Of a stretch of 64,000 bases of DNA, positions 56,906 through 58,093 are shown piece by piece. Position 1 is the stretch's first letter, and every line of letters begins with the position of its first letter. This DNA is from Candidatus Spongiisociaceae bacterium (GTDB lineage: Bacteria; Actinomycetota; Acidimicrobiia; Spongiisociales; Spongiisociaceae). The stretch spans positions 4,640,001-4,704,000 of the forward strand of contig OZ253564.1 of the NCBI GenBank assembly GCA_965262915.1. Direction: 5' to 3'. A program made the position numbers and the translations under genes. The notes below the pieces were generated by a model, which worked only from the letters and a program-made list of their open reading frames with translations, had not been told where the DNA came from and did no database searches.

Positions 56906-58093
56906 TCACTTGGTGATTTTGGTGACGGTGCCCGCACCTACAGTACGACCACCCTCCCGAATAGCAAACCGCAAACCCTCATCCATAGCAATAGCAAACC
57001 CCAACTCCACCGACATATACGTATTATCACCCGGCATCACCATCTCCACACCCCCAGGCAACCCCACCCGACCAGTCACATCCGTAGTACGAAAATAAAA
57101 CTGCGGCTGATACCCAGGAAAAAACGGATTATGCCGACCACCCTCATCCTTAGTCAACACATACACCTGCGCATCAAAACACGTATGCGGCGTAATCGAG
57201 GACGGCGCAGCCAACACCTGCCCCCGCTCCACATCCCCCTTACGAACCCCCCGCAACAACACCCCAATATTGTCACCAGCCCGACCCTCATCCAACAACT
57301 TCCGAAACATCTCCACCCCCGTCGCCACCGTACGACGAGTCTCCCGAATCCCCACCACCTCAACCGTCTCACCAACCCGAACCACACCAGCCTCCACCTT
57401 CCCAGTCACCACCGTCCCCCGACCAGTAATCGAAAACACATCCTCAATCGGCATCAAAAACGGCCGATCCACCGGACGATCAGGAACCGGCACATACGAA
57501 TCAACCGCATCCATCAACTCCAACACACCCCCAGCCGCCACCGGATCACCCTCCAACGCCCCCAACGCCGACACCGGAACCACCGGCACGTCATCACCCG
57601 GAAACCCATAATCATCCAACAGCTCCCGAACCTCCAACTCCACCAACTCCAACAACTCCTCATCATCCACCAAATCAACCTTATTGAGCGCCACCACCAC
57701 ACACGGCACCCCCACCTGACGAGCCAACAAAACATGCTCCCGCGTCTGAGGCATCGGCCCATCAGCCGCCGACACCACCAACACCGCCCCATCCACCTGC
57801 GCCGCACCCGTAATCATATTCTTGATATAATCCGCATGACCCGGCATATCCACATGAGCATAATGACGAGCAACAGTCTCATACTCCACATGAGCAATAG
57901 CAATCGTAATACCCCGCTCACGCTCCTCAGGCGCCTTATCAATCTCATCAAACACCGTAAACACATTCCCAGACACACGCTCAGACAACACCCGAGTAAT
58001 CGCAGCAGTCAACGTCGTCTTACCATGATCAATATGACCCATAGTCCCAACATTCACATGCGGCTTAACCCGCTCAAACCTAGCCTTCGCCAT
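56906..58093 (-). CDS. tuf: Elongation factor Tu
   Basis: [33 protein letters not shown] and [13 protein letters not shown]. Confidence 0.99.

Follow-up and report, generated by a model that had tools for sequence, protein, structure and literature searches.

The tuf gene of this Candidatus Spongiisociaceae bacterium is written almost entirely with codons ending in G or T, and this bias is probably best read as the product of a gene conversion between repeats that is filtered by NucS, strand-polar and biased towards G/T. The gene lies on the minus strand at 56906..58093 of the window (the whole stretch of 64,000 nucleotides that was analysed) and consists of 395 codons and a TGA stop. Its translation and Pfam matches identify a full-length EF-Tu (GTP_EFTU PF00009, 2.3e-62; D2/D3, PF03144 and PF03143), which is 72–83% identical to named bacterial EF-Tu proteins. 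The fraction of G or T at codon position 3 (K3) is 0.967 in tuf, compared to a mean of 0.466 (sd 0.054, 1–99% range 0.30–0.61) in 2781 other confident ORFs of the same genome. The gene is thus about 9 sd from the genome mean, and it is the sole whole gene above 0.9.

The plus strand contains only 29.6% G+T (352/1188) over the tuf CDS. An earlier note on this DNA had counted G+T by eye (14/60 at 56941–57000 and 12/60 at 57601–57660, versus 30/60 at 52321–52380); these counts are exact, and the synonymous skew that they pointed to, in a gene with normal neighbours, is real and stronger than first noted. In sliding windows within tuf, the GC skew ranges from −0.38 to −0.57 and the AT skew from +0.21 to +0.47, both being about 0 outside. 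On the coding strand, the (G+T−A−C) skew reaches 0.93 at third codon positions, versus 0.27 at first and 0.02 at second positions, and the flanks have values of 0.02 and −0.01. TTT is used in 14 of 14 cases (genome background 0.07), ATT in 14 of 16, AAT in 7 of 7, TAT in 9 of 9, GAT in 26 of 28, and TTG encodes 25 of the 27 leucines (genome background 0.11). At third positions, C drops from about 0.55 to 0.03, G increases from about 0.40 to 0.56 and T reaches 0.41, so that GC3 is lowered to 0.59, compared to 0.85–0.97 in unskewed relatives. The G/T fraction at position 1 (K1) is 0.64, versus about 0.50–0.53 in unskewed relatives.

The tuf gene is among the most highly expressed genes, and selection on its expression could favour U- or G-ending codons or a G/U-rich mRNA, through the tRNA pool, mRNA stability or nuclease avoidance. 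Two non-actinobacterial tuf genes with a K3 of 0.73–0.75, among 80 named tuf loci, lend some support to this explanation (none of the non-actinobacterial genes exceeds about 0.75), and a mid-range K3 alone is therefore not diagnostic. However, other highly expressed genes do not share the bias: K3 is 0.45 in fusA, which is directly upstream of the str-operon copy of tuf and co-transcribed with it, 0.50 in rpoB, 0.48 in an rplA-like gene and 0.48–0.57 in the rpl genes. The earlier note had named equal skew in single-copy, highly expressed genes as an observation that would speak against its own explanation; none was found in fusA, rpoB and rpl. Moreover, single-copy and diverged-copy tuf genes are normal in sister lineages, the polarity reverses within a single mRNA, transposase mRNAs flip from 5′ to 3′, and duplicates on the lagging strand prefer A or C at third positions. 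Expression selection is consequently highly improbable, and codon adaptation or any other mRNA-level reading was discarded, since co-transcribed highly expressed genes and single-copy tuf are normal.

The G/T-rich part of the gene extends over codons 1–384 (56942..58093, minus strand), of which only 5 end in A or C; K3 in the first nine tenths is 1.0, 1.0, 0.97, 0.97, 0.97, 1.0, 0.97, 0.97 and 1.0. Codons 385–396 (56906..56941, minus strand) have the opposite polarity: 8 of the 12 have A or C as their last base, among them AAA and the TGA stop, and the plus strand of this stretch is 58% G+T, versus 29.6% for the whole CDS. The claim that the skew starts at the start codon therefore holds, but its 3′ end is not merely unskewed as had been thought, the last ~36 nt being reversed. 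The reversal is longer in relatives (K3 of 0.15–0.26 in the last fifth of the gene in G004, and 0.35 in the last tenth in G014).

This anatomy bears on transcription-associated mutational asymmetry, in which the exposed non-template strand of a heavily transcribed gene would accumulate changes. The G/T-rich strand of tuf is indeed the non-template strand. Yet the skew sets in at the start codon instead of the transcript start, both fusA, which is co-transcribed, and single-copy tuf genes are normal, the 3′ end of tuf is reversed, and other duplicates have an A/C-rich coding strand. This explanation is extremely unlikely; the 3′ reversal and the A/C-rich coding strands of some duplicates led to the rejection of transcription-linked mutation.

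The genome contains a second copy of tuf, at genome positions 232866–234053 (minus strand), in the str operon immediately downstream of fusA. Blastn between the two loci gives a match of 1192 nt, with 100% identity over 1188 nt; the homology unit, which is the presumed unit of gene conversion, spans 56904..58095 and ends no more than 2 nt from the CDS. The proposal that tuf is duplicated and homogenised is thus borne out, and the limits of the homology unit are also those of the skew, as had been predicted. Both flanks are outside: a tRNA-Met gene directly upstream (58176..58250, minus strand, found with ARAGORN, as were tRNA-Thr and tRNA-Tyr farther upstream) is unskewed, and rpmG directly downstream (56666..56848, minus strand; L33, from its translation and the Pfam family Ribosomal_L33) has a normal composition. 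The two copies evolve in concert, being 100% identical within the genome versus 93–95% protein identity to congeners, and 14 further tuf pairs are likewise closer within their genome than to orthologues.

The skew is general to the repeat families of this genome, which are mostly insertion sequences (IS), and is not special to tuf. For each repeat family, D was obtained by subtracting the keto skew of the right half from that of the left half. D is positive in 87 of 116 families and in 35 of the 38 families with at least 3 members, versus 0.00 ± 0.079 in unique DNA. Nine individually sampled IS families show the same keto gradient. The 5′ half of transposase mRNAs is G/T-rich and the 3′ half A/C-rich, and the transposase ORFs (361–502 aa) remain open. 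Skewed segments other than tuf are mostly not third-position G/T runs, according to a frame-aware scan from the segment midpoint. No skew is seen in the two copies of the rRNA operon (D of −0.05), presumably because of functional constraint. The D values of five E. coli IS elements range from −0.15 to +0.06. Those of ISL3 transposase homologues on plasmids are 0.02–0.24 in eight actinobacterial cases and 0.12 in one Pseudomonas, and do not discriminate.

The polarity of the skew follows replication, not transcription. The skew minimum, at about 240 kb, was taken as the origin, and the terminus lies around 2.855 Mb; the cumulative keto and GC skews turn at about the same places genome-wide, with a background slope of about 0.016 per base. 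Both tuf copies are on the leading strand. In 28 of the 36 low-copy repeat segments with a strong skew, the G/T-rich strand is the leading one, and in the other 8 it is the lagging one; duplicated genes of the lagging strand have an A/C-rich coding strand (K3 of 0.23–0.30). The skew of tuf has the same sign as ordinary replication strand asymmetry, in which the leading-sense strand is G/T-rich, but it differs from it in size (0.40 overall and 0.93 at third positions, compared to the background slope) and in being confined to repeats.

The direction of change was deduced from comparisons between related tuf genes. Synonymous differences within one genus comprise 111 changes from A/C to G/T versus 7 in the reverse direction; between G244 and G246, the former are 72 C>T and 39 C>G, and the reverse ones include 1 T>C and 5 G>C. 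When changes were polarised with three outgroups, 32 were from A/C to G/T and 3 were reverse. Both ratios show that nearly neutral sites were fixed in one preferred direction. The changes oppose G/T to A/C and are not confined to transitions, since C>G accounts for 39/111, 33/65 and 28/57 of the G/T-ward changes in three comparisons and for 9/32 of the outgroup-polarised ones.

The earlier note had favoured deamination or repeat-induced mutation, in which single strands of duplicated DNA become exposed and are hypermutated by C>T and A>G. The skew is indeed repeat-confined and strand-polar, and transitions are the majority (72 C>T out of 111). However, the 39 C>G changes out of 111, which are transversions that deamination is unable to produce, and the share of about one half in the two other comparisons, argue against a deamination or RIP-like process; so does the third-position G content, which rises from about 0.40 to 0.56–0.63 in skewed tuf genes. 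Repeats are not degraded either: tuf is intact in all the full-length matches listed and its protein is 76–95% conserved across order-level relatives, and the transposase ORFs are open. Hypermutation of this type is very unlikely. The repeat-dependent and strand-polar nature of the process, on the other hand, was rightly anticipated.

A survey across Actinomycetota supports the repeat dependence and associates the skew with the mismatch endonuclease NucS. All 34 genomes with NucS and two near-identical tuf copies are skewed, with K3 of 0.64–0.98 (the set was assembled from 14, 11, 2 and 7 genomes, the last 7 from other classes). On the contrary, none of the 14 genomes with near-identical copies in which NucS was not found (G201, G272, G267 and 11 from other classes) is skewed, K3 being a normal 0.36–0.46, although "not found" partly refers to draft genomes (G267 is 80% complete). 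For the other-class genomes, both the grouping and the predicted result were set down before any K3 value was calculated, and the skew was observed in 7/7 NucS-positive genomes versus 0/11 without NucS found. In NucS-positive genomes whose tuf copies have diverged (84.7–89.6% nucleotide identity), K3 is 0.40–0.51 in 7/7, and it is also 0.40–0.51 in 8/8 genomes with a single tuf (assemblies of at most 10 contigs: G052, G219, G080, G110, G071, G055, G034 and G400). The bias thus occurs only where conversion operates: near-identical pairs are skewed; diverged pairs and single copies are not, in NucS-positive genomes too. Since the skew is confined to repeats and absent from single-copy and diverged tuf, the explanation is rightly sought among strand-polar processes that depend on repeats.

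The earlier note had suggested looking for missing repair genes, nucS among them. The skew tracks the presence of NucS, not its absence, and this favours a biased correction over hypermutation. The link is a correlation across related, non-independent genomes, from which we infer a causal role of NucS; it is spread over about 16 NucS-positive and skewed families and 8 unskewed families without NucS. GC3 is very high (0.88–0.99) in most of the NucS-less two-copy genomes, the exceptions being G201 (0.72), G339 (0.52) and G403 (0.55), and this could confound the comparison. The genus g14 does not fit well. The two copies of G025 are 99.4% identical and have a K3 of 0.56 (0.53–0.81 in congeners), and G025 was withdrawn from the NucS-less, unskewed two-copy cases after NucS was found in 2 of the 6 incomplete genomes of the genus. 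If NucS is present throughout g14, K3 can stay low despite identical copies; the first tenth alone has a K3 of 0.82–0.97. In five skewed drafts with a single tuf match (G116, G215, G098, G276 and G264), no trace of a second copy was detected. In G022, which was left out of all tallies, tuf is normal and NucS was not found.

It is practically excluded that the trait arises from an assembly artefact or from a foreign tuf acquired by horizontal transfer, and no support for either was found. Dozens of genomes that were assembled independently show the same pattern, and faulty assembly is therefore not its cause. Acquisition from a donor with such a codon usage, which had been considered at the outset, conflicts with the way the trait tracks phylogeny and copy state and with a protein identity that falls smoothly with kinship; no non-actinobacterial tuf among the 80 named loci has a K3 above the value of about 0.75 mentioned above.

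The NucS/EndoMS gene is located at genome positions 5029377–5030078 (plus strand). It encodes a protein of 234 aa with a PH-like NucS_N domain and a NucS_C nuclease domain (PF21003 and PF01939), and the two-domain NucS of G000 is predicted to be a mismatch endonuclease. MutS was not found in G000, G025, G022, G227 or G201; therefore, NucS-less genomes do not simply have the canonical system instead. NucS was reported to cut G/T, G/G and T/T mismatches, and C/C, A/C and A/A little or not at all (NAR 2016, PMC4838380). In M. smegmatis, recombineering oligonucleotides that give G-G, G-T or T-T mismatches are described as being rejected more than 500-fold, other mismatches escaping (PMC11551767), and NucS is reported to suppress homeologous recombination (PMC5290159). 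These last two reports present NucS as acting on annealed single strands and as limiting homeologous recombination. The mismatch classes that are repaired and ignored by NucS map one-to-one onto the bases that are favoured and disfavoured here.

The following mechanism would account for the skew. The two tuf copies would be held identical by gene conversion in a host of the class Acidimicrobiia that has NucS/EndoMS as its sole mismatch repair, acting on G·T, G·G and T·T and ignoring A·C, A·A and C·C. When a strand of one copy pairs with the other copy, G/T opposite G/T would be cut and the transfer undone; the reciprocal heteroduplex, with A/C opposite A/C, would go unseen and lead to conversion. 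We infer that the transferred strand is mostly of the same sense, as would be the case, e.g., for single-stranded DNA annealing to the lagging-strand template. Only conversions that place A/C on the transferred strand would then succeed, leaving the leading-sense strand with G/T. Sites that are nearly neutral would thereby be pushed towards G/T as if by selection, and some amino acids would be shifted too. Because tuf is co-directional with replication, its coding strand would become NNK. Insertion sequences occur in both orientations, and only a boundary-anchored bipolar component would be visible in them. Why this component should be anchored at the ends of the homology is not explained by the model.

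Among IS elements, the DDE_Tnp_1_4 family is strongly bipolar in two NucS-positive genomes, G000 and G005. It is flat in G255, in which no NucS was found. In G010, which is NucS-positive, its copies are only weakly bipolar, and this counts against the model.

A process that depends on repeats and is associated with NucS might also be mutational. NucS cuts in the heteroduplex between repeats, or a co-inherited factor, would lead to break repair, and the error spectrum of resynthesis or of exposed strands would enrich G/T. Such a process draws on the associations with repeats and NucS that also underlie the conversion model, NucS is reported to make double-strand cuts (PMC4838380), and a preprint mentions a T>C excess in paralogous regions of M. 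tuberculosis and suggests an asymmetric, recombination-associated repair (PMC13061034). However, K3 values of 0.97–1.00 and the 111:7 ratio resemble a fixation bias, not an error spectrum, and a mutational bias would have to raise not only C>T but also C>G, which is normally rare, on one strand. Also, in nine IS families with 4–37 copies, the minority alleles are not biased towards G/T and are mostly transversions, although such a count has low power at compositional equilibrium. This mutational explanation is judged unlikely.

The G/T-biased conversion that we favour can be compared with known systems. The concerted evolution of tufA and tufB by gene conversion has been described in Salmonella and E. 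coli (PMC5485169, PMC6053082). There, like here, one copy belongs to the str operon and the other is next to a tRNA/rpmG-secE-nusG cluster, and the copies are near-identical, the homology ending at the CDS. We know of no compositional consequence of tuf conversion in Salmonella or E. coli, and the two-copy genomes surveyed here in which NucS was not found have a normal K3. GC-biased gene conversion, which is known from eukaryotes and was proposed for bacteria, is similar in that a bias of heteroduplex repair acts as selection on neutral sites only where conversion occurs. It differs in that it opposes G/C to A/T on both strands, whereas the bias here opposes G/T to A/C on one strand; moreover, the latter is strand-polar, repeat-bounded and nearly saturating, and GC3 falls. 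Fungal RIP also targets duplicated DNA with a biased direction, but it consists of C>T only, destroys repeats and serves defence, whereas here C>G is common, the genes are functional and codon usage is at equilibrium. The roles published for NucS are mutation avoidance and anti-recombination, in contrast with the directional compositional drive on repeats proposed here. The literature search found no report of such a drive in the accessible text of the papers, the nearest being the T>C remark in PMC13061034.

We give about even chances to a broader proposal, namely that NucS-type repair imposes a strand-polar, "keto-biased" conversion on every recombining repeat of Actinomycetota, and perhaps of NucS-bearing Archaea, which would recode an essential gene to near-pure NNK, shift EF-Tu amino acids and stamp IS elements as bipolar, the polarity recording the strand exchanged between repeats at replication. 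If this is true, the substrate range of a repair enzyme, and not selection or mutation, would determine the synonymous sites in about 97% of the codons of an essential gene, through a strand-dependent biased gene conversion on the G/T versus A/C axis. Considering the K1 of tuf, a non-adaptive drive would therefore alter the EF-Tu protein sequence as well. Tests of codon usage, dN/dS, horizontal transfer and expression would misread such genes. The skew could also be used to trace which strand moves between repeats and from where, and sequence alone could flag actively recombining duplicates or IS elements and a functional NucS in a lineage. The idea is directly testable with existing actinobacterial recombineering tools.

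The composition of tuf also produces an antisense "shadow" ORF of 408 codons on the plus strand (56888..58114), which is a by-product rather than a gene. Its first codon positions pair with the third positions of tuf (K1 of 0.06), and it is open by construction because codons starting with A or C are never stops.

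In the window, the gene tuf (minus strand, 56906-58093) encodes an EF-Tu of 395 codons with three EF-Tu Pfam domains. It is flanked by a tRNA-Tyr/Thr/Met cluster and, on the other side, by rpmG, tRNA-Trp, secE, nusG, rplKAJL and rpoB. The closest named relatives of the protein are from Acidimicrobiia MAGs (78-83% identity). The genome, G000, is a single 5.06-Mb contig with 64% G+C, and the second tuf anticipated in the earlier note is indeed present in the str operon (232866-234053), 100% identical over 1188 nt. The note had also asked whether skew and homology share their boundaries: the homology between the two copies ends at most 2 nt from the CDS. 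No third tuf of normal composition was found in G000. The relative G019 has, besides two identical copies, a third, divergent tuf (G019:C1:16-1227, L122; 72% identical in protein), which occupies a 1231-nt contig by itself.

The by-eye G+T counts that first pointed to tuf are exact on recount. The (G+T-A-C) skew of the coding strand is 0.93, 0.27 and 0.02 at third, first and second codon positions, respectively, and close to 0 on either side of the gene. The fraction of third positions occupied by G or T (K3) is 0.967, for a genome-wide mean of 0.466 (sd 0.054, 2781 confident ORFs); tuf is the only whole gene of G000 with K3 above 0.9. K3 is 0.48-0.57 in rpoB and the rpl genes, and 0.45 in fusA, immediately 5' of the other copy. 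Phe, Ile, Asn, Tyr, His and Asp are nearly always encoded by the T-ending codon, which the genome avoids, and Leu by TTG (25 of 27), which is also avoided genome-wide. First positions are shifted too (G/T fraction 0.64 vs 0.48-0.53 in unskewed relatives), and the drive towards G/T seems to have changed the composition of EF-Tu, which contains more Val, Gly, Asp and Glu. The ORF of 408 codons antisense to tuf is a mechanical by-product, because its codons begin with A or C and are never stop codons.

The 3' end of tuf had been read as normal, but 8 of the last 12 codons end in A or C, the rare AAA among them; the polarity is therefore reversed there. The reversed stretch is longer in relatives (K3 falls from 1.0 to 0.15 along the gene in G004), and K3 peaks at the 5' end in all skewed genomes.

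In the 14 NucS-positive relatives (NucS being the mismatch endonuclease NucS/EndoMS) whose two tuf copies are 98.6-100% identical, K3 is 0.71-0.98, and it is 0.64-0.82 in 11 further verified near-identical pairs from NucS-positive genomes of a class-wide sample. Where the copies have diverged to 84.7-89.6% (seven NucS-positive genomes), K3 is 0.40-0.51 in both; the G196 pair (88.8% identity) gives 0.66 and 0.52. Single-copy tuf, with or without NucS, has a K3 of 0.42-0.51 in assemblies of at most 10 contigs. Thirteen skewed drafts have a single tuf match: in five, tuf is located at a contig end, in another five, contig ends carry pieces of tuf or an incomplete str operon, and the assemblies of G116, G215 and G098 hold no trace of a second tuf. 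Two later single-match drafts, G276 (K3 0.63) and G264 (0.59), are likewise skewed without such a trace.

NucS (PF01939) was found in 27 of 31 close relatives; across the class the count is 173 of 221 genomes, and across the phylum 108 of 331. The G000 protein has two domains. MutS was not found in any of the five genomes tested for it, G000 among them. In whole Actinomycetota families, no NucS was found (f16 0/26, f24 0/9, f82 0/23, f92 0/26, f94 0/24, f95 0/19).

Three genomes of the class, NucS-negative by both the family model and a query with the G000 protein, have unskewed tuf pairs: G201 (100% identity, K3 0.43), G272 (98.6%, K3 0.37) and G267 (98.6% across the 367 nt that were assembled, K3 0.38). 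In the same order, the NucS-positive G257, G094, G278 and G259 are skewed (K3 0.67-0.91). For the other classes of the phylum, the prediction was set before any K3 was computed, and near-identity was judged by equal or near-equal BLAST scores (the copies differ slightly in G471, G292, G445, G536 and G281). All seven NucS-positive two-copy genomes are skewed (G285, G327, G341, G393, G405, G429 and G471; K3 0.68-0.79) and none of the 11 NucS-less ones is (G326, G339, G403, G536, G281, G445, G526, G423, G514, G474 and G292; K3 within 0.36-0.46). Altogether, near-identical pairs are skewed in 34/34 NucS-positive vs 0/14 NucS-less genomes, a tally in which kin are not independent and some NucS absences come from drafts. 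The picture in genus g14 is ambiguous: NucS is detected in only two of six incomplete genomes, and the copies of G025 are 99.4% identical, yet K3 is 0.56 (0.53-0.81 in its congeners).

Relative to G246 (K3 0.53), its g14 congener G244 (0.81) shows 72 changes from C to T and 39 from C to G at synonymous third positions, against one from T to C and five from G to C. Polarized by three outgroups, 23 C>T and 9 C>G are derived in G244, and 3 changes in total in G246. Third-position C in the G000 tuf has dropped from about 0.55 to 0.03, with G up to 0.56 and T up to 0.41; in the skewed tuf of other classes C is down to 0.21-0.28 and G up to 0.52-0.63. Since C is replaced by both T and G, the axis of change is from A/C to G/T, and not one of transitions. 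This axis, C>G included, rules out simple deamination. The deamination or RIP-like mechanism of the earlier note is thus not supported, C>G being common, but its proposal of a repeat-dependent, strand-polar process is.

Repeats of at least 300 bp make up 11% of G000; many are transposase-bearing insertion sequences (IS) of at least five Pfam types, with families of roughly 38, 25, 18 and 12 copies. A genome scan returned 147 segments with an absolute keto skew (G+T-A-C) above 0.28. All nine IS families sampled share a bipolar gradient in which the 5' half of either strand is rich in G/T; the transposase mRNA is accordingly G/T-rich early and A/C-rich late, and the non-coding ends are nearly pure G/T. 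In the IS at G000:C1:1340972-1342782 and four related copies, the plus strand switches midway from almost pure G/T on the left to almost pure C/A on the right. The transposase ORFs of this IS and its relatives are intact, and its non-coding end (1340988-1341210) contains G/T nearly exclusively. At least eight more bipolar families occur elsewhere in G000, all outside the window. The difference in keto skew between the two halves of a repeat (left minus right), a measure independent of orientation, exceeds 0 in 87 of 116 repeat families; among the 38 with at least three members it does so in 35. It is 0.00 ± 0.079 in unique DNA of G000 and -0.15 to +0.06 in five E. coli IS elements.

In low-copy repeats the skew is mostly one-directional, with G/T on the leading strand (28 of 36 strongly skewed segments; the other 8 are of opposite sign). 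The skew minimum of G000, its origin, is at about 240 kb and the terminus at about 2.855 Mb; the leading strand carries both tuf copies. Where duplicated genes lie on the lagging strand, their coding strand is A/C-rich (K3 0.23-0.30), and the polarity therefore tracks replication, not transcription. The rRNA operon pair of G000 (166308-171100 and its partner) shows no skew.

That tuf evolves in concert is established, as are GC-biased gene conversion and NucS repair. In the literature searched, no account was found of tuf or IS elements with a G/T skew, nor of a biased conversion driven by NucS. The nearest item is a 2026 preprint that remarks on an enrichment of T>C in paralogous regions of M. 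tuberculosis (PMC13061034).

On balance, and with moderate confidence, we consider NucS-filtered, G/T-biased gene conversion to be the best explanation of the tuf skew. According to published work, NucS acts in vitro on G/T, G/G and T/T mismatches, not on A/C, A/A and C/C (PMC4838380), recombineering oligos forming NucS-recognized mismatches are rejected more than 500-fold in M. smegmatis in vivo (PMC11551767), and NucS suppresses homeologous recombination (PMC5290159). The A/C to G/T axis of the change in tuf coincides with this specificity. Single-stranded DNA of one copy would anneal to the other copy at its lagging-strand template, in the same geometry as oligo recombineering. Transfers that would form mismatches between G/T bases would be removed by NucS, and those forming mismatches between A/C bases would survive. 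The surviving conversions would put A/C on the lagging-nascent strand, hence G/T on the leading-sense strand, which is the polarity observed in tuf and low-copy repeats. A second component, anchored at homology boundaries, would produce the bipolar pattern of the IS and, in tuf, both the fall of K3 from 5' to 3' and the reversed polarity at the end of the gene.

Outside the window, a single-copy element inserted right after a tRNA gene (G000:C1:4155512-4156700) is nearly pure G/T over its first ~400 nt; its opposite-strand ORF of 593 aa has no Pfam match. In the window, a unique stretch at about 14445-15450 (genome 4654445-4655450) has one codon phase above 85% G/T and a keto skew of about -0.29, and overlaps an opposite-strand ORF of 469 codons. 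A lagging-strand gene of 437 codons (59489-60802, plus strand) has an exceptionally low K3 of 0.30 and a GC skew of -0.25 to -0.29, and the self-BLAST map contains no repeat there; it may reflect the same drive with a partner in other genomes, or be unrelated. The sole other long ORF with a high K3 (0.77; G000:C1:2993452-2994978, plus strand, 508 aa) has a weak match, slightly under the Pfam cut-off, to the terminase large-subunit ATPase, and is therefore probably a prophage gene.
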